Source of the DNA: Candidatus Jorgensenbacteria bacterium
GTDB taxonomy: Bacteria; Patescibacteriota; Minisyncoccia; UBA6257; GWB1-50-10
Direction of reading: 5' to 3'
Assembly (NCBI GenBank): GCA_043807585.1
Contig: JAZDFV010000015.1
Span: 16,071 to 80,070, forward strand
DNA: 64,000 nt
Translations under genes and position numbers: made by a program
Notes under the pieces: generated by a model
What the model was told of the DNA's origin: nothing
Seen by the model: the letters and a program-made list of their open reading frames with translations, nothing else
Databases searched by the model: none
Shown: positions 6,130-63,887 of the stretch, piece after piece
Position numbering within the stretch: position 1 is the first letter of the stretch
How the letters are laid out: each line of letters starts with the position of its first letter

Positions 6130-7326
6130 TTATCCGTAAAGTCGCGCGAGCTCGTTGAACTTTACGAGACGCTCGCGGATAGGGGCGCCGATTTTCACGC
6201 CGTCGGCGCCGCAGGCGCGCGCGAGGTGGATGATGAACGTGTCATCGGTCTCGCCGGAGCGATGGGAAATAACAACCTGAATCCCGCGCGTGCGCGCCGC
6301 GCGGATGGCTTCGCATGTCTCGCTCACGGTTCCAATCTGGTTCGGTTTGATGATGACGCCGCTTATGGCTCCCTGTGCGGCGCACGATTCGATGAGCGCC
6401 GGATTCGTCACGGTGAGGTCGTCCCCCACGATGAGCTTTCCGGGGAGTTCCCGCCGCAGCGCCGCGAATGTCTCTCCCTCGTTCTCGTCGAACGGGTCTT
6501 CAATGGACATGAGGAGTGGCTCGCGCGCCGCATAGCTTTGGTAGATCGTTTTGAGTTCATCACTGGTGAGGTTTTTGCCCTCGAACTTATAGAAGCCACC
6601 CTTGAAGAAAACGGAGGCCGCGGAGTCAATGCCAAGCGCAAACTCTTTCTCGAGGTGGAGGGAGCGTATGCGCGCCCCGAGCGTGGCGAGGGGCTCGAAG
6701 TTGTCTTTGAAGTTCAGGGAGTAGCCACCCTCATCACCCAGGCGGATGGCGGTGAGATTCTGTGACTGCTGCAGCCATCCACCGAGGTCATGGTAGAAGG
6801 CCTTGAGCTGTTCCACGCTCTCTTTTACCGATACACTTGGTTTCACTGCGACAAGGTACTCCTGAATGTCGAGGTTGTTTTCCGCATGGGCGCCGCCGTT
6901 TATGAGATTTGAGAAAATGCGCGGCGGCGCGTCGCCTGCGGTGCTCGCGAAAAACTCGCCTCGGAGCATGAGCCAGAGCTCGCGTCCCTCGGCGCCCGCG
7001 AGCGCCCGCGCGAAGGCGATGGAGACGCCGAGGAGGACGTTACCGCCGAACGCTGCCTTATCCGGCGTGCCGTCCAGGTCAATGAGGAACCGGTCCAGGT
7101 CGCCCACCGAGGTGAAATCCCTGTCCCGTAGCGCCTGCTCGATCTTTTCCGCAGCCGCTATCGCCTCCGCGGTCGCCAGCACCCGCGCCTCGCGCGAGCC
7201 GCGGCTCCCACCGGAGGGAATGGATGCGGAGAATTCCTTTCCGTTGTCGGTGACGATGATCACCTCGATCGTAGGCGCCCCACGCGAGTCAGGAATTTCT
7301 TTTATGGCGATGCTTTGGATTCTCAT
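6130..7326 (-). CDS. eno: enolase (phosphopyruvate hydratase)
   Basis: IKEIPDSRGAPTIEV, SIPSGGSRGSREA, C-terminal IKPNQIGTVSET...VISHRSGETDD signature blocks. Confidence 0.9.
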   Translation of the reverse strand: MRIQSIAIKEIPDSRGAPTIEVIIVTDNGKEFSASIPSGGSRGSREARVLATAEAIAAAEKIEQALRDRDFTSVGDLDRFLIDLDGTPDKAAFGGNVLLGVSIAFARALAGAEGRELWLMLRGEFFASTAGDAPPRIFSNLINGGAHAENNLDIQEYLVAVKPSVSVKESVEQLKAFYHDLGGWLQQSQNLTAIRLGDEGGYSLNFKDNFEPLATLGARIRSLHLEKEFALGIDSAASVFFKGGFYKFEGKNLTSDELKTIYQSYAAREPLLMSIEDPFDENEGETFAALRRELPGKLIVGDDLTVTNPALIESCAAQGAISGVIIKPNQIGTVSETCEAIRAARTRGIQVVISHRSGETDDTFIIHLARACGADGVKIGAPIRERLVKFNELARLYG

Positions 7327-7421
7327 AGTTTTATTTTCCTTGGTTGCACATTCTCATATTCTTAAGAATATTAGAACATCATGCCACTCGTTGTTGTTTT
7401 GTTACTCATTGTACCCCGGCT

Positions 7422-7461
7422 GGTGCTATGACGCGTCATAGCACTATGCTATAGCATAGTA
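7422..7461. repeat. two abutting perfect palindromes (gtgctatgacgcgtcatagcac; actatgctatagcatagt) of the GGTRCTA-N10-TAGYACC family, upstream of eno
   Basis: Read directly; related copies at 9418, 15442, 16165, 23022, 23141. Confidence 0.55.
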
Positions 7462-7619
7462 CCCTCTCCCAGCTCGGAGACGAAATCGGGGAAGTTCTGA
7501 CACGTTTTAGCTTCGGTGTTCATTGATTGTGGTAAAACAACGGTCAATTAAATATGATTCTTCTTGCTCCATCCAAGGGTGCTATAATTAATTATAGCAC
7601 CCTCTACTACAGTTCCAGA

Positions 7620-9417: not shown

Positions 9418-9442
9418 GGTACTACACGATCGTGTAGTACCT
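9418..9442. repeat. perfect palindrome gggtactacacgatcgtgtagtacc (GGTRCTA-N10-TAGYACC family), upstream of the Cys-rich gene
   Basis: Read directly. Confidence 0.55.
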
Positions 9443-10522: not shown

Positions 10523-10558
10523 AAATTACATTTCCTCGCCAGTCATGCGACTATTCTC

Positions 10559-11317
10559 TTATTCGTGCGAATTAGCCGAGGGGAAGATAACGGCCCCGCC
10601 GCGGGAGCGAATCGCGCGCCGCACCGTCGCCATACAACTTTCAAAATCTGCTGTGAGTGCCTTCTCCGTAAGGCGCACCACTACCCATCCACGCTGCTGC
10701 AAGAAAAGATCTTTGGCACGGTCGCGCCTGCGTGTGTGCGCCCCGGCGTGCGCTTTCGTGTTATCGCATTCTACCGCAATGAATCCTCGCCGGCACGATA
10801 TCGCAAAATCAAGGCAGTACCGTTTCCCGCCGGAAATCCGGTATTGCGGAATCGCGGGGATGCCACACCGCGTGAGCGCCTGCGCCACTATCTCTTCTGT
10901 TGGCACCACTCGGTAGAGTTCGAGAATCGTTCTCGCAGTCAACAAACGGTCGAGCGTTGTAAAACCGAACGAAACACGCCTCGGCGGCACGTTCCTGATT
11001 GGCCGCGGGAGTTGTTGGATGCGGCCCACGTGAATTTGTTGATATTGCTTACCCGCGTCAGGATGGGTGGCCTCATCCGGAAGCAGGTCGCGCCGCGTCC
11101 GTACGCGCGAACGAACTGTGCGCGCATAGTAACGGATGCATCGCCCCAGTCGGCCGAAGAGCGCTGGTTGGTAGAACGCGAGATAGTGAAACGCGCGCCG
11201 CGGCGCCTTGGCGACCGGCATACGGTACCAATGCTCACGGAGGAGAATGGCCAAATCGCGCCTGCGCTTCAATATACCGACAAGCACCACCCCATCCTTC
11301 GTGTGTGCGCGCTCCAT
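10559..11317 (-). CDS. DUF559 (endonuclease-like, restriction-endonuclease fold) domain protein
   Basis: C-terminal YCLDFAI...IAVECDNTKAH...DRAKDLFLQQRGWVVVRL resembles the DUF559/Vsr-like fold. Confidence 0.55.
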   Translation of the reverse strand: MERAHTKDGVVLVGILKRRRDLAILLREHWYRMPVAKAPRRAFHYLAFYQPALFGRLGRCIRYYARTVRSRVRTRRDLLPDEATHPDAGKQYQQIHVGRIQQLPRPIRNVPPRRVSFGFTTLDRLLTARTILELYRVVPTEEIVAQALTRCGIPAIPQYRISGGKRYCLDFAISCRRGFIAVECDNTKAHAGAHTRRRDRAKDLFLQQRGWVVVRLTEKALTADFESCMATVRRAIRSRGGAVIFPSANSHE

Positions 11318-12020: not shown

Positions 12021-12076
12021 GCCACCATTCTCTTATTCGTGCGAATAAGAGAATGGTCAGAGCAAAGAAGAAATGG

Positions 12077-12355
12077 TTAAAGAATGGTAATGATGGCTCG
12101 GGCGGCAGGGCGTGCGGTATTCGCGAGCCGATAGAACACCTGCAAATCCCGCTGGTCGCGATCCACAAGGTCAGCCGCGTGGAGCACCGCGAGGTGCCGC
12201 GAGGTCGATTTGAAAGAGAGACGTATGGCACCCGCAATCTTCCCTACCGATGCCTCGCGCTCCTCCTTGAGATACTTCATGATGGCAAGCCGCCGCCGGT
12301 TGGCGAGTGCCTTGAGGGTCCGCTCGAGATCGCGCATAGGTGTTTGGGTTACCAT
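12077..12355 (-). CDS. ArsR/SmtB-family transcriptional regulator
   Basis: 92 aa; winged HTH VGKIAGAIRLSFKSTSRHLAVLHAADLV. Confidence 0.7.
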   Translation of the reverse strand: MVTQTPMRDLERTLKALANRRRLAIMKYLKEEREASVGKIAGAIRLSFKSTSRHLAVLHAADLVDRDQRDLQVFYRLANTARPAARAIITIL

Positions 12356-12383
12356 TATGCCTTATTTTACCATTCGCGCGAAA

Positions 12384-12416
12384 ACATTCCGACATTCTGC
12401 AGAATGTGAGAATGTT
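12384..12416. promoter_or_regulatory. imperfect copy of the 40-bp palindrome (cattctgcagaatgtgagaatg core) between the divergent ArsR genes, abutting the TATAAT of the plus-strand ArsR; candidate operator
   Basis: Palindrome ends 6 nt before tataat (12423-12428); ATG at 12438. Confidence 0.5.
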
Positions 12417-12437
12417 GTGTGGTATAATGAAACTGGT

Positions 12438-12713
12438 ATGAAAACAAAAACGGCAAAGCAACTGGAAAGGCATTTTAAGGGCATGGCCAACCATCGGCGG
12501 ATCGAGATTTTGAGATTGATTGCCGAGAGTGAGGGAATTAGCTTGGAAAACATTGCCAGGAGTCTGGATTGTAATTTCAAGACCATTTCCGAGCATACTA
12601 AAAAATTGGTTCAAGCTGGGCTGGTTGATAAAAAATATCACGGCAGGACAGTCGCTCATACCCTCTCACCCTACGGCAAAATTTTCTGCAAATTTATAAC
12701 CAGCTTCTCGTAA
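12438..12713 (+). CDS. ArsR/SmtB-family transcriptional regulator
   Basis: MKTKTAKQLERHFKGMANHRRIEILRLIAESEGISLENIARSLDCNFKTISEHTKKLVQAGLV; start chosen at internal ATG preceded by tataat. Confidence 0.7.
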   Translation: MKTKTAKQLERHFKGMANHRRIEILRLIAESEGISLENIARSLDCNFKTISEHTKKLVQAGLVDKKYHGRTVAHTLSPYGKIFCKFITSFS

Positions 12714-12742
12714 TCACCTAATCACCTAATCACCTAATCACT
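12711..12742. repeat. tandem 8-mer repeat (taatcacc) x4 starting at the ArsR stop codon
   Basis: taatcacctaatcacctaatcacctaatcac read directly. Confidence 0.6.
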
Positions 12743-12776
12743 GACATTCTCACATTCTGCAGAATGTGAGAATGTC
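12743..12776. repeat. copy of the 40-bp perfect palindrome family (gacattctcacattctgcagaatgtgagaatgtc) between the convergent ArsR and helicase genes
   Basis: Read directly; identical core at 15125, 16239. Confidence 0.7.
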
Positions 12777-12851
12777 GTTTAACGTAGTTGGAGTGCTCAG
12801 GACGAAGGAGGAAATTGGCCTATGTGGTGGAGAGAGGTAACAACACGTGTC

Positions 12852-14429
12852 TCATGCTTCTCGGAGCTTCCGGTCGAGCTTTAGTTTTGCGATGCGCGAA
12901 CGGATGGCGCTCTGTTGACGCCCCAATCGCCCCGCGAGGTTCTTCACGGGCGCGCCGCTCGAAAAAAGTTCTCTCAGTTCTGCATCATCGCTCGTCGGCC
13001 ATGGGCGGTACGCGTTCGGATACCGCTCCCGCATCTCGGCGAACCTGGTATCGCCCGACACTCCGCCGCCGCGTGACCGGGCGAATTCTGCTCGGTGTTC
13101 CGCTCGCCTCTTCATGGTTCCTCCGCACGTAACGATGAATTTCCTTTCCCGTGCGTTTTGGGAAACGGGGGTCTGTAGGGTAAGTTCTGCCGCGGCGCGG
13201 TGAGATAGTTGCTGGAACTCTCCATCACGCGCGAGAATCTCGGGATGCACTTCAAGCGCACGTTCGTTCCACCCGAGAAGGGAAAGCCCGGAAAAAGACC
13301 TCACGCGGGAGAGCGCGACATACCCCTGCCCGTACTCGAACGCGCGAGAGAGATCGACCACCGCGGCGTCGAGCGTCATCCCCTGGCTCTTATGGACGGT
13401 AATGGCCCACGCGAGCTTCAGCGGCACCTGCCGGATGCGCGCGAGCGTTTTCGCGCCGTCCACCATGGACCACTCCATGGGGAGTGCATGAATGAGACGC
13501 CCGGCGTGCGTGCGCACGAGCGGGTAGCCCTCATCGGAAAAATCTTCCACCTCTCCCAGCGTGCCGTTCACAAACCCCTCCTCAAAGTTGTTCTTAGTGA
13601 AGAGCACCTTCGCGCCCAGTTTGAGGAAAAGTCGCTCCGGTGAGAGACAGCCGCGCTTCAATTGCGCTACGAGCGTTTTTGCACCGTGCGATTCCATGGA
13701 GCATTCGCGGACGCTCCCCGGCAATAACGCCAAACGCTCTTCGTTCATTTTATCTACATCAACATTATGTGCGTAGAGATGTGTGTGATTTCCTTCTCGG
13801 ACGGTGTGGACACGCCGCGCGCGAAGCACGGCGGACATTCGCGTTCCACTCCCGCGGCGCACCTCCGAAAGGAGCGCGAGAAACTCCTTTTCATCCTGAC
13901 GGTACTGCTCGGAAAGATAGCACACCGCCACCTCGGCTGTTTCCCAGGACGGCGAGAGAAACGCGAATCGCGCCGGCGGTTCACCTTCCCGTGCAACCGG
14001 GGGTAATTGGAAGAAATCCCCAGCGAGCACCACCTGCAGACCGCCGAACGGCGCTTTATTTTTCCGGAGCACGCGGCACACCACATCAACAGAGGCAAAT
14101 GTTTCGGCATCCAGCATTGAAATCTCATCAATGATGAGCACTTTCGTACGCGCCACCCGCGACGTAAGTCGGTCGTTCCCCGCGAGCAGTTCCGCCTCAT
14201 CTCGGGAGAGCGATTTCCGGATACCGATGCCGGACCACGCATGGATGGTCATACCGCCTATATGCGTCGCCGCGATGCCGGTGGACGCGGTGATCGCCGG
14301 TTCGATACCGTGCGCGCGGAGATAGGCGACGTAGCGGTTCACGGTGTGTGTTTTTCCCGAGCCGGGCTCACCCGTCAAAAACACGTTCACGCCGGACTTC
14401 AACACCATGAGCGCTTGCTCCTGGGTCAT
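12852..14429 (-). CDS. PIF1/RecD-like (AAA_30) ATP-dependent DNA helicase
   Basis: Walker A LTGEPGSGKTH, Walker B VLIIDEISM, helicase motifs plus C-terminal HTH-like tail. Confidence 0.75.
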   Translation of the reverse strand: MTQEQALMVLKSGVNVFLTGEPGSGKTHTVNRYVAYLRAHGIEPAITASTGIAATHIGGMTIHAWSGIGIRKSLSRDEAELLAGNDRLTSRVARTKVLIIDEISMLDAETFASVDVVCRVLRKNKAPFGGLQVVLAGDFFQLPPVAREGEPPARFAFLSPSWETAEVAVCYLSEQYRQDEKEFLALLSEVRRGSGTRMSAVLRARRVHTVREGNHTHLYAHNVDVDKMNEERLALLPGSVRECSMESHGAKTLVAQLKRGCLSPERLFLKLGAKVLFTKNNFEEGFVNGTLGEVEDFSDEGYPLVRTHAGRLIHALPMEWSMVDGAKTLARIRQVPLKLAWAITVHKSQGMTLDAAVVDLSRAFEYGQGYVALSRVRSFSGLSLLGWNERALEVHPEILARDGEFQQLSHRAAAELTLQTPVSQNARERKFIVTCGGTMKRRAEHRAEFARSRGGGVSGDTRFAEMRERYPNAYRPWPTSDDAELRELFSSGAPVKNLAGRLGRQQSAIRSRIAKLKLDRKLREA

Positions 14430-14899
14430 GCGGGTAAATCGTCGTTGATGTGGGTCACCCGCAGCCGCTCAATGCCGTTGGTTTCAAATTCTTTCCAGTA
14501 TTTTTCGAACAGAGGATGGTCTTTCTCGATCCGCTCGGACGCGCTCATCGCCCGAATTTCCTCGTCGGTGTACATTCTGGAACAATCACGGTCCACGAGA
14601 TGGCACGCCAACTCCTCCCAGAAATTTTCCTCGTCGTAGCGATCAATACATTCCTGTATCTCCTCATCGTCCTCGAGTTTCAACGTAGGAACGTGCCGCC
14701 GCATCTCAACGTCGTACTTTACCAAGTCCCCCGCCCCAAACTCCTCGGCGCGGGAGAACATGTAATCCTCGATCTCGTCGAATGCCTCCTTCCGCTTGTC
14801 GTCGGGCGCGTCCGTACGCACCGCGTTCGCAAGCCAGTTGCCCAAGTATACCGTCTTGAGCAGGGCGAGAAACTGGTCTTTAGTAAGTCGAATCTCCAT
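14426..14899 (-). CDS. acidic hypothetical protein translationally coupled (ATGA overlap) to the PIF1-like helicase
   Basis: 157-aa ORF ending 4 nt inside the helicase start. Confidence 0.5.
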   Translation of the reverse strand: MEIRLTKDQFLALLKTVYLGNWLANAVRTDAPDDKRKEAFDEIEDYMFSRAEEFGAGDLVKYDVEMRRHVPTLKLEDDEEIQECIDRYDEENFWEELACHLVDRDCSRMYTDEEIRAMSASERIEKDHPLFEKYWKEFETNGIERLRVTHINDDLPA

Positions 14900-15124
14900 A
14901 CGCTTCGAAAATGGTAATAACTTCTCAACTATTCTATCACTTGCGCAATCCAGACAATAGCGTAGACAACTATTCTACCATTCGAGCTTTGCTAAGTAGC
15001 GCCTTCCCGTCCGCCCGCTCCGCGCGCCGTCGTCAAAGCCTCTGGCGACGTACGACCGGAGCAGTAGCGAGGCAAGTAGCTGGGCGAAAAGGCGGAAATT
15101 AGAGATATAACGAGAAAAGGTATG

Positions 15125-15164
15125 AACGACATTCTCACATTCTGCAGAATGTGAGAATGTCGTT
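15125..15164. repeat. 40-bp perfect palindrome aacgacattctcacattctgcagaatgtgagaatgtcgtt
   Basis: Exact reverse-complement symmetry about ctgcag. Confidence 0.75.
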
Positions 15165-15181
15165 TTGGTGATGCGGGTCTG

Positions 15182-15403
15182 TCAGTCGGACATTTTCCAC
15201 TGGACGCGGCCGACGGTGCCGTCCGTTAGGCGCACCTTGATGCCGCGCGGGTGGATGCCCTTGGACGTCAAAATCTCCTTCACTATCCCCTGCGTGTAGT
15301 TCGTCGTACCGTAGTTTTCTTTCTCTATGATCCAGACGGCGTCCCCGGGTTTCACTTCGCTCCGCTTCGGCGGATTGGGATTGTCGGGTCCGTGCTTTCT
15401 CAT
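15182..15403 (-). CDS. YwbE-family (DUF2196) small protein
   Basis: GIVKEILTSKGIHPRGIKVRLTDGTVGRVQ matches the YwbE signature. Confidence 0.7.
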   Translation of the reverse strand: MRKHGPDNPNPPKRSEVKPGDAVWIIEKENYGTTNYTQGIVKEILTSKGIHPRGIKVRLTDGTVGRVQWKMSD

Positions 15404-15441
15404 GTTCGTTTTGTCATTCTACCTCAAAACGCCGCGCGCGG

Positions 15442-15471
15442 CAGGGTGCTACAGTCAACTGTAGCACCCTG
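15442..15471. repeat. palindrome cagggtgctacagtcaactgtagcaccctg (GGTGCTA-N10-TAGCACC family) upstream of the ywbE-like gene
   Basis: Read directly. Confidence 0.55.
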
Positions 15472-15503
15472 GTGATGATGGGAGAATTGAGGAAGAAACC
15501 CGT

Positions 15504-15827
15504 CTACCGCGGCAAATTGTCAAAAATCGTAACATCGCCCCCACTGTACTCCCCTACTTCAAACCCATCATATGCAAAGTGATTGCCATTCTGATTGAAA
15601 TAGAGCGCGGTGTGTCGGTCGAGGATGATCATAAAGCCGCGGCTGCCTGGTTGATACGGAACGATATCGACACGCTCCACGCCGGAAAAAATATCATGGA
15701 GCGGACCAAAAGGAGAATTCTTGATTCCTTGTTGGCGCGCCAAAAATGTTATGGCCGCACGTGGCCATAACTTTAAAAGTAGTCTTGTATACCAGCTGAT
15801 TTTTATCTCCTTCCTCGTGTTCGCCAT
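15504..15827 (-). CDS. hypothetical protein
   Basis: 107-aa ORF, no recognised domain. Confidence 0.35.
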   Translation of the reverse strand: MANTRKEIKISWYTRLLLKLWPRAAITFLARQQGIKNSPFGPLHDIFSGVERVDIVPYQPGSRGFMIILDRHTALYFNQNGNHFAYDGFEVGEYSGGDVTIFDNLPR

Positions 15828-15837
15828 ATTCCTAGTA

Positions 15838-16134
15838 TCATTCGCTCGCGGGTGACTTGAGAGAATCGCGTTTTGCTTCTTCCACGTTTTCCTTTAGGGA
15901 GCCAACCTTACGCATGATATCGATCAAGGTTTTTGTTTCTTCCTGGTCTGCATCCGGTGACATTGCCCGGCGCGCTGCCTCTAAATTTTCCGCCAGGCGG
16001 GACATGCTCTCGGCCATCTTTTTGAAGAGCAACTCCTTCGGGATATTTTTCTCTCCGCCGTATTTCACAATCCACCACCAATATAGGAGCCGAACCTTCA
16101 CCATTGGCCAGAAGCTGTAGCGTATAAAATCCAT
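15838..16134 (-). CDS. hypothetical small protein
   Basis: 98-aa ORF. Confidence 0.35.
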   Translation of the reverse strand: MDFIRYSFWPMVKVRLLYWWWIVKYGGEKNIPKELLFKKMAESMSRLAENLEAARRAMSPDADQEETKTLIDIMRKVGSLKENVEEAKRDSLKSPASE

Positions 16135-16164
16135 ATCTCTATTCTATCTCAAAACGCCATGCGG

Positions 16165-16204
16165 GGTACTATAGGCTAATTCGCACGAATTAGCCTATAG
16201 TACC
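16165..16204. repeat. 40-bp palindrome ggtactataggctaattcgcacgaattagcctatagtacc (GGTACTA...TAGTACC outer arms, long spacer)
   Basis: Read directly; followed by a ccattcgcgcgaattagagaatgg module also present at 12367 and 12025. Confidence 0.55.
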
Positions 16205-16238
16205 ATTCGCGCGAATTAGAGAATGGGACTCAAGCAAG

Positions 16239-16274
16239 AACATTCTCACATTCTGCAGAATGTGAGAATGTCGT
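16239..16274. repeat. copy of the 40-bp palindrome family
   Basis: aacattctcacattctgcagaatgtgagaatgtcgtt. Confidence 0.7.
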
Positions 16275-16362
16275 TCTCTATGATCCAGACGGCATCCCTG
16301 GGTTTCACTTCGCTCCGCTTCGGCGGATTAGGATTGTCGGGTCCTTGCTTCCCCATATTCGT
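16264..16362 (-). pseudogene. internally deleted remnant of a duplicated ywbE-like gene (5-prime about 90 nt only)
   Basis: 16275-16362 is near-identical to 15308-15403 (the ywbE 5-prime end); a deletion junction joins it directly to the palindrome. Confidence 0.6.
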
Positions 16363-16399
16363 TTTGTCATTTTAACATTTTCGCCTTACTTCTCGTTGG

Positions 16400-17155
16400 T
16401 CAGTTAGTTTTTTTGTACCAAACATCAATTTTTTGACGTGTTTCTCTTCGATTTGCATTAACAAAAGTCTGTAATTGTGGAAAATATCCTAAAAATTCGT
16501 CGTGTAATTTCTTGCGGCTAGCTGATGTCTCTCTACCACTTTTAATTAAATAACTAGTCCGAACTAACCCAATAATAAGATCGACGAGTTGCAGTTCACA
16601 TGATGCATATAAAGGCGCAAAGAGTACTGAAGAATCTCGAATCTGGATTGTGGGCTTCCCCAAAATAGTATTCTTTTTTCTCAGCATATTATTCAGTACC
16701 TTCGAGAATTCTTCCTGTTGCTCAAAATTAAGCGATTGTCTATCAAAGATAAGTCGAGCAGCAGAAAGACGATTGTGTATTAAGCTTCCATGAAGTATCC
16801 ATGGATAAGACAATAGCAGTGCCGCTAACTTCGCGCGGCTGATGTGATTTTCCCATCTTTCCCACGTGCGAGCGTTCACCACAATTGCTCTAAACAGGGC
16901 ATTCGAATCAACAAAAGCAGAAAGAAACCCACTCATAACTTTAGATTGTTTTTCGGTAATATTTGTAGTGTTGGAAAAATGAAGAGTATTGATACAACTT
17001 TCTTTCATTCTCACTTGCCCAAGTCGCTGGAACAAATCGCAATCTACAGGTAGAAAAATACCACCAACCATAAAATGGCTGGTGCCTAGATACCCGAACT
17101 CAGTTTCGTCCAAAAAAATCCTGCAAAGATGAAATACTGATTCTGAAATTTTCAT
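16400..17155 (-). CDS. DUF3800-like protein (defence-island-associated family), AT-rich
   Basis: N-terminal IFLDETEFGY resembles the DUF3800 IFIDESG start; 251 aa; low GC. Confidence 0.4.
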   Translation of the reverse strand: MKISESVFHLCRIFLDETEFGYLGTSHFMVGGIFLPVDCDLFQRLGQVRMKESCINTLHFSNTTNITEKQSKVMSGFLSAFVDSNALFRAIVVNARTWERWENHISRAKLAALLLSYPWILHGSLIHNRLSAARLIFDRQSLNFEQQEEFSKVLNNMLRKKNTILGKPTIQIRDSSVLFAPLYASCELQLVDLIIGLVRTSYLIKSGRETSASRKKLHDEFLGYFPQLQTFVNANRRETRQKIDVWYKKTN

Positions 17156-17223
17156 TACGAAACAAGCCGGGTTGCCCCGGCTTGGAAGTCAAACGGCTTT
17201 CGAGTCAGGGCGCAATTGGTTCT

Positions 17224-18798
17224 TTATATTCCAAGTTCTTTGTCTCTATTTTTTTCTTCTACCGGCTTCGCTTCCTTGTAGTACCGCAGGGCGCCGAGGG
17301 GCACCCTCGGCTTCTTGTTGTTCAGCAAATCGTCAACGGTGAGGATTTGAATCTTGGGGAATTCAAACTCGTTTCCGAACTTGACCTTGTACGAACCGGC
17401 GCTCGCCGCTTCCTCCAGCATCGGCTTGGTTGGTTTCTCAAGCGTAATGAGCACGCCACCCTCCGCTCGTTCCCGCTCCACGTCACCCTTGAGCGTGGCG
17501 ATATCGTTCCGATGAACCCCGCCGCCTTTCACCTGCACCAGCAAGCGGCCGTATTCCTCGTTCCCATTCTTCAAGTCCTTTACGAACGTAATAACCCCGT
17601 CTATGCCTTTATCGGCGCCGCGCATATGCTCCTTCGTTTTACTTTGAGCCGGCACCGCGTCCACCATATCGAGCACCCAGTATTCGAATTCAAACGGGTC
17701 TTTTTTGAATAGTGCCTGCGCGCTGGCAACATCACGCGGACGACCGTCAATATATATTGCAGGCATCTTTCCTTCAAACTGCTTAGCGAGGCGATGGCGA
17801 ATGAGGTTGATCGCAAGCATCGTGATGTCAATACCGACCCAGTTCCGCTTCAGGCGTTCCGCCACCGACACCGTTGTCCCGCATCCGCAAAATGGGTCAA
17901 GCACCCAATCCATTTCGTTTGAAGATGCCTTAACAATACGTTCAAGGAGTGTTTCTGGTTTTTGAGTGGGATAGCCAAGTCGTTCATTAGGAGAAATATG
18001 CCCTCCTGATGGAATATCAACCCAAAAATCTTCTGGAATCTTACCTCGCTTTAAATATTCCTGACGCACTGTTTCATCCTGTAATTTCCCTTCACTCCCC
18101 CATATTTTTGCCCCAGCACCCTTATCTGTATGTAACTCCTTATAGGGAATCCTCGTTGCTTCAAGATTGCTGTAATAATTATCTGTCTTTGAATATCGCA
18201 AAATTGTGTCATGTTTTTTAGGAAAATCATTCTTTGCACCAGAAGGACCAGTATAGCACCACACAATCTCGTTCCTAAAATTCTGCTTTCCAAAAATCGC
18301 GTCCATCACAATTTTTAAGTAATGGCTTGCGGTCGGGTCACAGTGGAGATAAATACTCCCTGTCGGTTTCAGCACGCGATGTAACTCTAAGAGTCGCACC
18401 GTCATCATGGTGAGATAGGCAAGCACGTCGTTGTGTCCCACGAGTTTCTCCAACGCCTGCATCAGATTGATGATTTTCTCGTTGATGGGCGCTTTTGTAG
18501 TTCGTACTCCCGCGAGTTCCTCGAAGGTTTCCTGCGCATCGCGCGTCCAGTGCCATGAATCTTCAAACGCCTGCACTTGCGAAGGGCTGTCCTGCAACCC
18601 TTCTTTAAAGAGAACATTGTAGTTCCGGTTGGAGTTGAACGGCGGGTCGAGATAAATCAAATCAAAACTCTCGTCGGGAATTTTCTCCCGCAGGATTTCC
18701 AAATTATCGCCGAAGAACAGGGTGCGATTTCTAAGTGGTTCCATTTTTTTCCATCCTACTCCTCTTTTTCTTCCCCGCCAAGCTACGAGAGGGTACAC
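17224..18798 (-). CDS. beta-class N6-adenine/N4-cytosine DNA methyltransferase fused to a C-terminal Mrr-like (PD-(D/E)xK) nuclease domain
   Basis: Motif IV DLIYLDPPFNS precedes motif I LDPFCGCGTT (beta order); C-terminus GADKGIDGVITF...LLVQVKGGG resembles Mrr_cat. Confidence 0.75.
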   Translation of the reverse strand: MYPLVAWRGRKRGVGWKKMEPLRNRTLFFGDNLEILREKIPDESFDLIYLDPPFNSNRNYNVLFKEGLQDSPSQVQAFEDSWHWTRDAQETFEELAGVRTTKAPINEKIINLMQALEKLVGHNDVLAYLTMMTVRLLELHRVLKPTGSIYLHCDPTASHYLKIVMDAIFGKQNFRNEIVWCYTGPSGAKNDFPKKHDTILRYSKTDNYYSNLEATRIPYKELHTDKGAGAKIWGSEGKLQDETVRQEYLKRGKIPEDFWVDIPSGGHISPNERLGYPTQKPETLLERIVKASSNEMDWVLDPFCGCGTTVSVAERLKRNWVGIDITMLAINLIRHRLAKQFEGKMPAIYIDGRPRDVASAQALFKKDPFEFEYWVLDMVDAVPAQSKTKEHMRGADKGIDGVITFVKDLKNGNEEYGRLLVQVKGGGVHRNDIATLKGDVERERAEGGVLITLEKPTKPMLEEAASAGSYKVKFGNEFEFPKIQILTVDDLLNNKKPRVPLGALRYYKEAKPVEEKNRDKELGI

Positions 18799-18844
18799 CT
18801 ACCCCAAAACCGAACCCCGGTAATAGCGGTTAGTAGAGACAAAC

Positions 18845-18897
18845 AAAAACGCCCGCTTGGGCGGGTTTGGATTATCGGGTCCGAATTTACGCATATT
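18845..18897 (-). pseudogene. second short remnant of the ywbE-like 5-prime end
   Basis: gcccgcttgggcgggtttggattatcgggtccgaatttacgcatattcgttttgtcatttta parallels 15345-15420. Confidence 0.45.
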
Positions 18898-19002
18898 CGT
18901 TTTGTCATTTTACACCAAAATGACGACTATTAACCTGTTATTAGAAGCATTGACATAGAGAGTACGTGGCGTTAATATACCGTCGGTTACTTTTGAGAGT
19001 GC

Positions 19003-19221
19003 ATGTGGCCTAGGCCTAAGACGACACTTCGCTTGCGAGGTTCAAACGTCATGGCACATACGAAAGGACTGGGAAAGGAGTACATTTACTGCCAATCGAT
19101 CGACTCACCTCCAGAATGGCAGGACGAAGTAGACTACCTCATTTATGAAGTTCAAAGTCTATTGATAGTAGAGAGGTTCAGCCAAAGATCGGTCGAGACA
19201 GATTTTGTACCTTCTCCCTAA
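19003..19221 (+). CDS. small hypothetical ORF ending at a rho-independent terminator
   Basis: 72-aa ORF; terminator immediately follows. Confidence 0.3.
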   Translation: MWPRPKTTLRLRGSNVMAHTKGLGKEYIYCQSIDSPPEWQDEVDYLIYEVQSLLIVERFSQRSVETDFVPSP

Positions 19222-19250
19222 GCCCAACAAGGATATCCTTGTTGGGCTTT
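19221..19250 (+). terminator. rho-independent terminator agcccaacaaggatatccttgttgggc then ttt
   Basis: 11-bp perfect stem, T-run on the plus strand. Confidence 0.55.
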
Positions 19251-19362
19251 AAATTTTTATGTGGATAACTACGCACAGGTATCCCTTACCAACAAAAAGT
19301 GGTTTTCTTCCCTGCTCGGTGCTTTACTGTCTTCTGCAAGGTAGAGAGGAAGCGGGATTTGG

Positions 19363-19719
19363 TCATTTATTAAAAGCCCATTCAGAAATATTGAGCAGAA
19401 CAATAGCATCCTCCTGTTGATTGGTCCAAATAGGTACTGTTTTATTCCAGTAGAAGAAGTGTGAAGTATTGCCACTCCCATTTACTTGTGTTTTATAAGA
19501 CCCTTTCTTTGTATAAAGAACAATTAAATCACCCTTTTTAATTTCGTGGTCAGTAAACCAAAAAGTAGCACTGGTAGCACTAGAAACTTGCGCCTCCCCT
19601 GTTTTTTTAGATTTGAAAACGGCGTATTCTCCAACGTTATCATCATCCAAAACCTCAAAAATAACCCTTTCTTTCTCTAAATTCCCCGCGTCTTCAATTC
19701 CTTTAATTTGGATTTTCAT
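19363..19719 (-). CDS. hypothetical soluble protein, AT-rich, first gene of a two-gene module
   Basis: 118 aa; stop/start overlap with the upstream gene. Confidence 0.45.
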   Translation of the reverse strand: MKIQIKGIEDAGNLEKERVIFEVLDDDNVGEYAVFKSKKTGEAQVSSATSATFWFTDHEIKKGDLIVLYTKKGSYKTQVNGSGNTSHFFYWNKTVPIWTNQQEDAIVLLNISEWAFNK

Positions 19720-20267
19720 TATGAATTATTTTTCTTAAAAGATTTCAAAAAATCAGGGTTCCACATAGCCAAAACAAAACTCGCTAAACATAAAAGTGCT
19801 ATACCCCAACGATATTGCAATAAATCAGGAGTAAAGAAAAGACCTCCCAATAAACCACCAACGGTGAATAAAAGATTCCTTACTCCAATAGATTCTCCTA
19901 ATCCTAATAATCTCTCCTTCAAAACAGCGGATTCTTCACTCTTTTGATAAAATTTATCCTTAAATGGTTTTAATCCAGCAATTTCACTTTGATAACGCTT
20001 AGTATCACCAAGAAGTGTTCTAGCTACCACTTTTGCTACTTTATTGTTTTCTAAATCTTCTTCGGTAATTTCATCTTTAATGCCAGCGTAGGGCGTTTTT
20101 GCTGACTTAACGCCATCTATTTCTGGCGAACCCTTCGGCTCCTCATCTAGTTTTAGAACTATCTTAGCCATTTTGTCTAAGTATAACACACCTGGTTCAA
20201 TGGTATCTACCAAAGAGTAATCCCGATATTTATAATGAGACAAGGATAGCTTTTCTCTAGAAACCAC
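19719..20267 (-). CDS. hypothetical protein with C-terminal transmembrane helices, AT-rich
   Basis: 182 aa; hydrophobic C-terminus NLLFTVGGLLGGLFF...IALLCLASFVLAMW. Confidence 0.45.
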   Translation of the reverse strand: MVSREKLSLSHYKYRDYSLVDTIEPGVLYLDKMAKIVLKLDEEPKGSPEIDGVKSAKTPYAGIKDEITEEDLENNKVAKVVARTLLGDTKRYQSEIAGLKPFKDKFYQKSEESAVLKERLLGLGESIGVRNLLFTVGGLLGGLFFTPDLLQYRWGIALLCLASFVLAMWNPDFLKSFKKNNS

Positions 20268-23021: not shown

Positions 23022-23047
23022 CGGTGCCGTGACGCGTCACAGCACCG
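23022..23047. repeat. near-perfect palindrome cggtgccgtgacgcgtcacagcaccg upstream of ppsA (shares the tgacgcgtca core with the eno site)
   Basis: Read directly. Confidence 0.5.
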
Positions 23048-24581: not shown

Positions 24582-24687
24582 ACTCAGTTTTAGCGGATTT
24601 TTTTGTTCTGTTTTAGCCGTACTCCATACTTAACGCCCGCTACTGACCACCAAACAATTATACCACCGCACCTCACAAAACCGCGCT

Positions 24688-24721
24688 GCTTCATTTCGTC
24701 ACATATGTGACGAAATGAAGC
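24688..24721. promoter_or_regulatory. 34-bp perfect palindrome gcttcatttcgtcacatatgtgacgaaatgaagc upstream of glycerate kinase
   Basis: Exact reverse-complement symmetry. Confidence 0.5.
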
Positions 24722-24811
24722 ACTGCACAATCACCTCCACCGCCGAGCATTTCCCCCGCCGGAAACAAAAAGAAGCCCCGATTTCCGAGGCTTCGCTTTC
24801 TGTTCTGACCG

Positions 24812-35958: not shown

Positions 35959-36379
35959 ATCCTGATCATTATACGCTCGTTTCAGGGGTTTTTGAACCGA
36001 AAGGACCGCGAACGAATTCGCGGTCTCTGGAATCGCCTACTACGCAACAAAACTCGCTGGATTCGGCCGTGCTACGCCGCTATTATGCCATGGCGTAATA
36101 GCGGCGTATGATATGAAGAAAAGAAAGAAAGGCATATCGTCAGGACAATAATTCTTTTAGCTTTCCCAAAATCAACCAATCCGCTGTTTGATTATGTTTC
36201 TTTCTCTCAAGATCAGTTAATTCACTATGCGGTTTTCTAAATTCAACCGGGCCCTCTAAGCTGCTCATCGGCCAACCCGGAAGTATTATTTTCGAGGAGG
36301 GCGAAAAGAATAAAATTTCATGGTCGAGGGCAACTGTCTTTATTGAACCATCCGGGAATGCGAGAGAATAAGCGATGTG

Positions 36380-50161: not shown

Positions 50162-50215
50162 AAATCCCCCATCCTCAATTCATTCACGTACGTGAATGAA
50201 TTGAGGACACTCCAT

Positions 50216-63799: not shown

Positions 63800-63844
63800 T
63801 GAAGCTCCACAGGCTTAAACGCGTGAAGCTCCACATATTTTTTT

Positions 63845-63887
63845 ATATCACTTTCAACGGTCGTTGAAAGTGATATACTTTTTTATT
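63845..63887 (+). terminator. rho-independent terminator after obg (atatcactttcaacggtcgttgaaagtgatat then cttttttatt)
   Basis: 15-bp perfect inverted repeat followed by a T-run. Confidence 0.6.

Follow-up and report, generated by a model that had tools for sequence, protein, structure and literature searches.

A dispersed four-box palindrome brackets genes for a small ArsR-type winged-helix protein in Patescibacteria and is its candidate operator

We analysed a 64-kb stretch of DNA (64,000 nucleotides, hereafter the window) from a Candidatus Jorgensenbacteria bacterium (contig JAZDFV010000015.1, positions 16,071 to 80,070). In this window, a 32-bp palindrome recurs around a gene for a 91-aa winged helix-turn-helix (wHTH) protein of ArsR type, here called ArsR2. 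Taking all the evidence together, the explanation that we find best, and on balance probable, is that the palindrome serves as the cognate operator of an ArsR2-type repressor throughout the Patescibacteria (candidate phyla radiation, CPR), whose gene is bracketed by copies of it. To our knowledge, almost nothing is known about transcriptional control in these mostly uncultured bacteria. A preliminary description of the window had reported two divergent ArsR-type wHTH genes (ArsR1 and ArsR2) and a recurring palindrome; Pfam confirmed the genes, and sequence matches confirmed the palindrome at four sites. The features of the ArsR2 cassette and the copies of its palindrome, which we call type 1, are as follows.

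12438-12713, plus strand: ArsR2-type mini wHTH gene, 91 aa (Pfam HTH_5, 30.1 bits; HVO_A0114, 39.1 bits).
12420-12428, plus strand: extended -10 element TGGTATAAT, 9 nt before the ATG at 12438; predicted leaderless start.
12384-12415, strandless: type-1 four-box palindrome, 5' copy, putative ArsR2 operator; boxes intact, position occupied in 79/80 homologue loci.
12712-12742, plus strand: tandem 8-mer TAATCACC, about 3.5 units, separating the ArsR2 stop codon from the 3' palindrome.
12744-12775, strandless: type-1 palindrome, 3' copy of the ArsR2 cassette, between the convergent ArsR2 and helicase genes.
15129-15160, strandless: type-1 palindrome, perfect over 40 bp with its flanks (15125-15164), on the 3' side of YwbE and 225 bp upstream of the operon for the 157-aa protein and the helicase.
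16240-16271, strandless: type-1 palindrome, 105 bp 5' of the 98-aa gene, its other side fused to a truncated YwbE duplicate.
7348-7379, strandless: variant type-1 palindrome ACATTCTCATATTCTTAAGAATATTAGAACAT, upstream of enolase (Pfam).

The perfect 32-bp core, ACATTCTCACATTCTGCAGAATGTGAGAATGT, occurs three times in the window, at 12744, 15129 and 16240. A search with the 40-mer gave one exact match (15125-15164) and two matches with 2 mismatches each (12740-12779 and 16236-16275), against a chance and shuffle expectation of 0. The fourth copy lies at 12384-12415 between the divergent genes, with the central 14-mer intact (4 matches in the window versus 0.23 expected). It differs from the perfect core at two bases, both in the left arm; because both fall in spacer columns that vary among related loci, this copy keeps all four conserved boxes. 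Its end lies 6-7 nt 5' of a TATAAT (12423-12428), and this hexamer is preceded by TGG, which makes it an extended -10 element. The variant fifth copy, which had been missed, is located 22 bp upstream of the enolase start at 7326 and shows the same promoter geometry, bringing the type-1 copies in the window to five with the variant included. The copies had been described as lying at the 3' sides of genes, and this proved too narrow: those at 15129 and 16240 are also upstream of minus-strand operons starting at 14899 and 16134, and the copy at 12744 is the only one of the three perfect ones between convergent genes.

To relate the palindrome to the gene, we used 80 metagenome loci that had been obtained through the ArsR2 protein alone, independently of the palindrome. 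The results showed that the palindrome lies 9-91 bp upstream of the gene in 79 of the 80 loci, and the lone exception has 54 nt of upstream sequence. The generalised type-1 motif, ATTC-N4-ATTCT-N2-AGAAT-N4-GAAT, was present twice in most ArsR2 loci. Consecutive sites were 307-386 bp apart in 85 of 124 cases, corresponding to a bracketed unit of about 330 bp (palindrome, gene, palindrome). Across the loci, the gene was flanked by 77 5' copies and 77 3' copies of the dispersed palindrome, with 1-6 copies per contig or locus among the loci examined. ArsR2 of the window fits this family plan, with the 12384 copy upstream and the 12744 copy downstream.

The 5' copies showed a constant relation to the promoter. 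A palindrome followed by TAnnnT, a start codon and an open reading frame (ORF) was found for 53 of the 77 5' copies, compared with 2% of random positions. The TATAAT-like hexamer comes 2-6 nt after the 5' copy and is often TG-extended, and the start codon follows 6-10 nt further on. Since the start codon sits so close behind the -10 element, the ArsR2-type mRNA is probably leaderless. At the other end of the gene, the 3' copy overlaps the stop codon or comes straight after it (commonest offsets in the homologue loci, -17 and -8), and the frequent C-terminus of the family, TFSHS, is encoded by the left arm of the palindrome. Overlap with the stop codon is the rule in most homologue loci; in the window, the tandem TAATCACC repeat displaces the 3' copy by about 30 bp.

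We then considered the protein itself. Both ArsR1 (33.9 bits) and ArsR2 (30.1 bits) exceeded the curated Pfam threshold for HTH_5 (22), and the two proteins are 31% identical. A profile of the ArsR2 family matched HlyU, ArsR, CadC and CzrA in the PDB with E values from 1.6e-6 to 4e-3. In the low-confidence AlphaFold2 model (mean predicted local distance difference test score of just 60.6, too poor for a classification by structure), the secondary-structure order fits alpha1-alpha2-alpha3-alphaR-beta-beta-alpha5. For ArsR2, 1338 homologue clusters were found; identities range from 66 to 93% among the 120 listed, which include the 20 that were aligned. Among named matches, the family appeared to be confined to Patescibacteria. 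The recognition helix, CNxKTISEHTxKL, is nearly invariant in the ArsR2 family, and the Cys at its N-cap (CNxKT motif) is present in 116 of 119 close homologues. In two loci, L095 and L127, the boxes read AAACT instead of ATTCT and the helix reads KTIGEH instead of KTISEH. This co-occurrence of box and helix variants, in two loci only, is suggestive and not conclusive.

The family-level matches to ArsR, CadC and CzrA could also point to a conventional metal- or arsenic-sensing ArsR/SmtB pair controlling a detoxification regulon, an explanation that we find scarcely credible. In the family alignment, neither an alpha3 CxC or ELCVCDL-type motif nor an alpha5 cluster of His/Asp/Glu ligands was found. 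The metal-binding motifs of ArsR/SmtB sensors are missing from the ArsR1 family as well. With the NCBIfam metalloregulator model NF033788 (cut-off 55), ArsR1 passed at 64.3 bits, and ArsR2 remained below at 46.6 bits. Moreover, genes for efflux or arsenic handling are absent from the island and do not recur around the cassettes, in agreement with the preliminary description, which had found no such gene adjacent to the pair.

Based on these data, we propose the following model. The ArsR2-type protein would be an ArsR/SmtB-like winged-helix repressor of about 90 aa, with the palindrome as its cognate operator. Each arm of this site carries two of its four ATTC boxes as direct repeats (ACATTC-yn-AyATTCT-nn-AGAATrT-nr-GAATGT). 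The 5' operator would span roughly -14 to -46 of the leaderless gene, and because the site covers this region, bound protein would be expected to occlude the promoter, resulting in negative autoregulation. The second copy, over the stop codon, would complete a unit of about 330 bp consisting of operator, gene and operator. In the window, the extra type-1 copies part the helicase operon from the YwbE operon, with the variant at the enolase promoter; such copies may bring neighbours under control of this repressor, serve as terminators of hairpin or roadblock type, or do both. The sites would multiply by copying and not by point mutation, which would account for identical copies within a genome and for in-frame copies in housekeeping genes of other CPR bacteria. 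From the sequences we infer binding, the sign of regulation and the control of neighbouring genes with different confidence: that the wHTH protein binds the palindrome appears highly probable, and that it represses its own gene appears likely.

We next asked whether the conservation of the palindrome resembles that of a protein-binding site or of an RNA hairpin, using 239 non-redundant sites. Most box positions were 97-100% conserved, while the spacer columns varied and were complementary in just 60-79% of sites. Mismatched arms were common (for example, CCAA opposite TGAG), and no conservation extended more than about 3 bp outside the 32-mer. Because the boxes are nearly invariant while the spacers vary, we conclude that the palindrome is most likely a protein-binding site first of all, with a secondary hairpin role possible. 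Together with the upstream palindrome in nearly all protein-fetched loci, this makes the ArsR-type operator suggested by the preliminary description very probably correct. We also considered whether exact conservation of the 32-mer reflects extreme constraint, and rejected this; the exactness is partly ascertainment by an exact 20-mer search, and the protein-fetched loci have variable spacers.

The palindromes might instead be hairpins only, that is, bidirectional terminators without a U-tract or mRNA-stabilising stem-loops, linked to the wHTH gene through shared descent of a duplicated intergenic module. Their stems are indeed strong, with RNA folding energies of -26.7 to -28.3 kcal/mol and z-scores of -3.7 to -6.1; the hairpin at 15129-15160 reaches -27.5 kcal/mol and is followed by a weak T-run on the minus strand. 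The copies in question are intergenic, the one at 12744 lies between convergent genes, and symmetric positions pair above expectation. The window also contains 26 unrelated near-perfect, almost loop-less palindromes (arms of at least 12 nt) in similar gaps, compared with about 0.7 in Markov simulations. They span 1683-63877 (for example, 9418-9441, 19220-19249, 24687-24722, 36073-36108, 50172-50207 and 63844-63877); 21 are intergenic, most are unique, and they often fill the few bases between co-directional genes. These long palindromes may be a general terminator or punctuation device, or sites of other regulators. This genome thus appears to use hairpin punctuation widely, and the operator palindrome may be part of that practice.

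Nevertheless, hairpins alone are a very unlikely explanation of the type-1 palindrome. A purely structural element would not be expected to keep its boxes invariant across genomes while its spacers are free and often non-complementary, and the 5' copy lies upstream of the -10 element, so that it is probably not transcribed with the gene. No U-tract followed the sites (downstream mean T, 3.1-3.3 of 10, equal to the mirrored upstream A content), and terminator-like sites were not enriched in the region (6 versus 5.5 in shuffles). The box variants co-occur with variants of the recognition helix, and a search of Rfam 15 gave nothing above the gathering score, the sole match being a sub-threshold hairpin, mir-5583 (39.6 versus 80 bits). 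Thus, of the terminator alternative raised by the preliminary description, the strong stem and a possible second role stand, and the missing U-tract speaks against it.

We further examined ArsR1, the divergent neighbour of ArsR2, which has a palindrome of its own, called type 2.

12077-12355, minus strand: ArsR1-type mini wHTH gene, paralogue of ArsR2, probable start 12337 (86 aa); Pfam HTH_5 and NF033788.
12024-12057, strandless: type-2 four-box palindrome ACCATTCTCTTATTCGTGCGAATAAGAGAATGGT (ACCATTCTCTTATTCG-TG-CGAATAAGAGAATGGT), 3' copy of the ArsR1 cassette, directly 3' of ArsR1.
12366-12383, strandless: partial type-2 site ACCATTCGCGCGAAA, upstream of ArsR1 and abutting the type-1 palindrome.

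ArsR1 probably starts at M7 (12337), since the database protein is identical from the seventh codon on and the homologues are mostly 86 aa. It belongs to a large CPR family with 767 homologue clusters. The type-2 palindrome, absent from the preliminary description, has the consensus ATTCTCTwATTCG-NN-CGAATwAGrGAAT. Type-2-like palindromes were found beside the gene in all four inspected ArsR1 homologue loci (L034, L136, L137 and L138); three of these genes have a copy on either side, the downstream one in L137 reaching over the stop codon. Type 2 therefore appears to go with ArsR1 and type 1 with ArsR2, the two sites having the same build and different sequences. Among the 80 ArsR2 loci, an ArsR1-type gene was near ArsR2 only in L063 and L071. 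Because this adjacency is so rare and each gene has its own type of palindrome, we read the divergent arrangement as a juxtaposition of two cassettes, ArsR1 with type 2 and ArsR2 with type 1, placed head to head, and not as a conserved two-regulator system. The idea of one joint site for paired regulators was accordingly abandoned.

To determine how widely the palindrome is distributed, we searched for its exact central 20-mer in one genome per species. The 20-mer was found in 46 stretches, of which 43 belong to CPR or unclassified 'bacterium' metagenome-assembled genomes (MAGs) and 3 to bins labelled otherwise. Its hosts include Saccharibacteria, Parcubacteria, Doudna-, Morani-, Jorgensen-, Azam-, Nomura- and Liptonbacteria, and an ArsR2 homologue lies beside the palindrome in just 11 of the 46 stretches. 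An adaptor or assembly artefact was rejected: the MAGs come from many independent projects, nearly all are CPR bins, and the gene halves around a palindrome encode the same protein. A phage origin was likewise rejected, the 20-mer being absent from the viral contigs searched; one contig of a viral collection only encodes a homologue. This IMG/VR contig (L127, 504-4829) carries the sole ArsR2 homologue from a viral collection, which has the AAACT boxes; its neighbours are a DDE transposase, a DNA methylase and TspO.

Several observations indicate how the sites multiply. At the variable columns, similarity was 0.73 within a locus and 0.57 between loci, a difference reached by 0 of 2000 permutations. 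L062 and L101 each hold three identical asymmetric copies in one orientation. Among about 95 copies that do not adjoin a wHTH gene, at least 13 lie in frame inside long conserved genes. Their hosts are MnmA (L005, L024 and L037), YchF (L006, L007 and L128-L132), AlaRS (L041), PolA (L043) and PurB (L046), and membrane glycosyltransferase-like proteins also carry in-frame copies. On both strands, the palindrome can be read through in two of three frames, giving HSHILQNVRM and TFSHSAECENV. The perfect 32-bp copies inside genes encode HSHILQNVRM, HSNILQNVGM or TFSHSAECENV, and these segments lie in surface loops.

YchF provided the clearest series of in-gene copies, at two sites. For site B we compared 120 homologues, of which 92 could be scored. 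The loop was 8 aa long in 73 of the 92 and 16 aa long in 7. Four of these seven long loops hold perfect 32-bp DNA palindromes in proteins that are 65-69% identical and whose flanking codons have diverged; others resemble decayed copies, and one has an internal tandem expansion. No direct repeat indicating target-site duplication was found around the four site B insertions, the only cases to which this result applies. At site A, a type-1 palindrome was present in three lineages. The common CPR loop at this site, MSLIRANKRISE, is encoded in L133 and L134 by a near-complete type-2 palindrome, TCTCTTATTCGCGCGAATAAGCGAAT, and the type-1 copies and the type-2 segment stand in exact register without change of length. 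In addition, frame 2 of the type-2 palindrome of the window (12024-12057) reads HSLIRANKRM, similar to the YchF loop SLIRANKRI, which suggests that this loop derives from a palindromic DNA element. Overall, palindromes with ATTC/GAAT boxes in common may have been copied onto, or converted by, one another, and the pattern agrees with this.

These observations bear on the possibility that the palindrome and its binder form a selfish, REPtron-like module. Solo palindromes would then be non-autonomous copies, comparable to repetitive extragenic palindromes (REPs), miniature inverted-repeat transposable elements (MITEs) or Rickettsia palindromic elements (RPEs), and any regulation would be incidental. 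The wHTH protein would mark or protect the sites, or recruit host recombination or replication functions. Such a module is compatible with the operator model. Consistent with such a module, the gene has its own repeat on both sides; the genomic context varies, with no conserved neighbour; similarity is higher among the copies of one locus than between loci, up to the identical asymmetric copies in one orientation; perfect in-frame copies occur in YchF, MnmA, AlaRS, PolA and PurB, with decayed or expanded remnants elsewhere; at YchF site A, a type-1 palindrome stands in exact register in place of a segment derived from type 2; a truncated YwbE duplicate is fused to the window copy at 16240; and the cassette on the IMG/VR contig stands beside a DDE transposase. 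However, no catalytic domain is recognisable in the 90-aa wHTH protein, the cassettes lack a recurrent transposase or recombinase nearby, and no target-site duplication was found at YchF site B. The copy number is low (1-6 per contig), the 20-mer has no match in viral contigs, and the tight promoter geometry of the 5' copy is that of an ordinary autoregulated gene. Weighing both sides, we consider a selfish module somewhat unlikely.

A related idea, which we judge unlikely, is a transposase-less selfish or domesticated replicator. In this case, gene conversion or template switching from one ATTC-box palindrome to another, perhaps aided by the bound protein, would copy a 32-bp site, which would colonise intergenic gaps and permissive loops of essential genes across the CPR, contributing the YchF loop SLIRANKRI. 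In-gene copies might then be roadblocks formed by the repressor, through which the regulator is linked to YchF and other housekeeping genes. The preliminary description had named a REP-like repeat indifferent to gene context as the finding that would count against its reading. The palindrome is indeed dispersed and copied across the CPR, even into coding sequences, but it is low-copy and tied to the wHTH gene.

We clustered ORFs of 127 loci all against all and found no conserved partner (transposase, recombinase, toxin or efflux pump), with loose recurrence only. The loosely recurring neighbours of the cassette were a PIF1-like helicase (7 loci, mostly directly adjoining), REase_MTES_1575 (6 loci), TspO and NUDIX; further cargo between palindromes included an HhH-GPD glycosylase, SNase and DsbB, and was heterogeneous overall. 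Loci with such neighbours include L012, L025, L063, L101, L107, L127, L136 and L138. In L055 the array runs helicase, palindrome, wHTH gene, palindrome, REase_MTES_1575, palindrome, and L101, L010 and L049 are comparable. As a speculative side observation, this set of neighbours and the Cys of the recognition helix hint at a redox or DNA-damage theme.

Such arrays could be explained if the palindromes were crossover sites of a site-specific recombinase acting in trans, separating integron-like cassettes that can be shuffled, with the wHTH protein as an accessory. Palindrome-separated genes in L101, L010, L049, L055 and the 12.0-16.3 kb part of the window, their heterogeneous cargo, the differing arrangement of palindromes and neighbours around the wHTH gene in L025 and L026, and a deletion or duplication junction exactly at the edge of the 16240 palindrome are in line with this. 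We nevertheless regard recombinase sites as highly improbable: no integrase or recombinase was present among the Pfam-annotated genes of the window or the recurrent neighbours, perfect symmetry gives no directionality, and in-frame copies in essential genes do not suit a cassette system.

Returning to the operator model, several points weigh against it. Spacer positions pair symmetrically more often than column composition predicts, and a hairpin or cruciform constraint, or arm-to-arm conversion, would thus also act on the spacers. Given the 26 long palindromes of the window, generic hairpin punctuation could explain the 3' and solo copies without any protein. From the copies at 15129 and 16240 it is 225 and 105 bp to the following start codon, and the promoters there have other palindromes closer by; the 12744 copy lies between convergent genes. 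The tight promoter arrangement is seen in just 10-16% of the copies located elsewhere than 5' of a wHTH gene. Finally, an operator role is odd for the 13 or more copies inside coding sequences. The small regulon proposed in the preliminary description is plausible for some neighbours and has partial support, the share of promoter-tight copies being low; control of the neighbouring operons by the repressor is an idea that we hold only tentatively.

The other features of the island are listed below.

12852-14899, minus strand: operon of a 157-aa protein and a PIF1/RecD-like helicase (Pfam PIF1, E 3.5e-35), bounded by the palindromes at 12744 and 15129.
15182-16134, minus strand: three small genes (98 aa, 107 aa and YwbE/DUF2196), bounded by the palindromes at 15129 and 16240.
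10559-11317, minus strand: REase_MTES_1575/DUF559 nuclease-like gene (Pfam), with a three-box type-2 site (10553-10572) over the stop codon.
16165-16228, strandless: 40-bp palindrome with an ATTCG-CA-CGAAT core and an adjoining partial type-2 site, upstream of the 98-aa gene.
16276-16375, minus strand: truncated duplicate of the 5' part and promoter of YwbE, about 92% identical to 15322-15421 (alignment).

The YwbE duplicate comprises the 5' third of the gene and its promoter, is truncated exactly at the edge of the 16240 palindrome and is joined to it directly. At several minus-strand genes of the island, a TAGAAT-type -10 box precedes the start codon by 6-13 nt (14900-14975; 15404-15440 / 16135-16165), and the string tcaaaacgcc occurs upstream of both the YwbE and the 98-aa gene; these boxes and the shared string point to leaderless starts and duplicated promoters. 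A second family of repeated palindromes, GGTGCTAy...rTAGCACC, was observed at 7421-7446, 7576-7603, 15442-15471 and 23022-23047; in one copy, both strands contain TGCTATAAT, while a different copy immediately precedes the TAGAAT -10 of the YwbE gene. A known defence system at the locus was considered and rejected, PADLOC having returned generic helicase and methyltransferase matches only. From 16000 to 20000 the GC content is 0.42-0.46, compared with about 0.55-0.60 elsewhere, and this part, home to a DUF3800 gene and to an N6/N4 DNA methylase with a fused Mrr-like nuclease domain, was probably acquired horizontally. The rest of the window is ordinary chromosome, with enolase, class II ribonucleotide reductase, PPDK and YchF.

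If the operator model holds, it would provide a transcription factor and an operator with a precise site across a whole superphylum, and a promoter model (extended -10, leaderless start) usable in the annotation of CPR genomes. The type-1 and type-2 pairs of protein and site would offer a natural system for the evolution of recognition specificity. A copied binding site that enters essential genes in frame, as RPEs do, yet with a dedicated binding protein, bears on the spread and persistence of repeats in very small genomes and on the origin of lineage-specific protein loops in CPR bacteria. In practice, the motif marks CPR contigs in metagenomes (43 of the 46 exact matches were CPR or unclassified MAGs).

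Neither the motif nor the sites of the two protein families were described in the literature searched (Patescibacteria palindromes, Saccharibacteria ArsR and the sequence itself) or in Rfam, and we therefore compared the unit with systems of similar build. Close in design are ArsR/SmtB autorepressors without a metal site, of the HlyU, BigR, SdpR and NolR type, in which a small winged-helix protein likewise has a palindromic operator over its own promoter. Operators of the ArsR family are of the 12-2-12 type, and the ATTC/GAAT-rich inverted repeats found here recall them. In contrast to these repressors, the site here is a 32-bp four-box palindrome instead of 12-2-12, a second copy lies over the stop codon, and the gene is probably leaderless. 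Furthermore, the sites are dispersed as a repeat that also occurs in coding sequences, there is no metal or efflux partner, and the family is seemingly restricted to Patescibacteria among named matches.

C proteins of restriction-modification operons are tiny Xre-type HTH autoregulators that bind a palindrome of two dimer sites upstream of their own leaderless or short-leader gene. The likeness to C proteins and C-boxes lies in the tiny HTH protein and the palindromic site just upstream of its own gene; no fixed partner genes were found here. 'I-shaped' hairpin terminators without a U-tract likewise have a long perfect intergenic stem without a T-run, whereas invariant boxes, free spacers and a position upstream of the -10 element are unlike a purely structural element. 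The palindrome-separated arrays resemble integrons, but no integrase or recombinase was found among the Pfam-annotated genes of the window or the recurrent neighbours. Unlike MITEs and elements derived from insertion sequences, the four YchF site B insertions showed no target-site duplication.

In REPIN/REP-RAYT systems, a single-copy gene is flanked by a dispersed short palindromic repeat that is homogeneous within the genome (PMC3116915, PMC3337134). The present unit is similar in that the gene is flanked by its own dispersed palindrome and copies are homogeneous within a locus. It differs from a REPtron in having a 90-aa wHTH gene and no HUH/Y1 transposase (Y1_Tnp gave no match, and the alignment contained no HUH motif), a few copies per contig instead of hundreds, and in-frame copies where REPs are extragenic. 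RPEs are palindromic repeats that have entered protein-coding genes in frame in a bacterium with a reduced genome, where surface loops tolerate them (PMC1166351, PMC1458961). The palindromes described here are likewise found in frame in conserved protein genes and are absent from most orthologues, as at YchF site B. RPEs are about 100-150 bp long and are not known to be accompanied by a gene for a binding protein. The present element, at 32-40 bp, is several times shorter, is tied to the gene of a binding protein and serves as the putative promoter-proximal site of a dedicated regulator; at YchF site A it replaces sequence without a change of length, and we claim no homology to RPE families. 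Taken together, these comparisons suggest that the palindrome-wHTH unit combines known kinds of element rather than forming a categorically new system.

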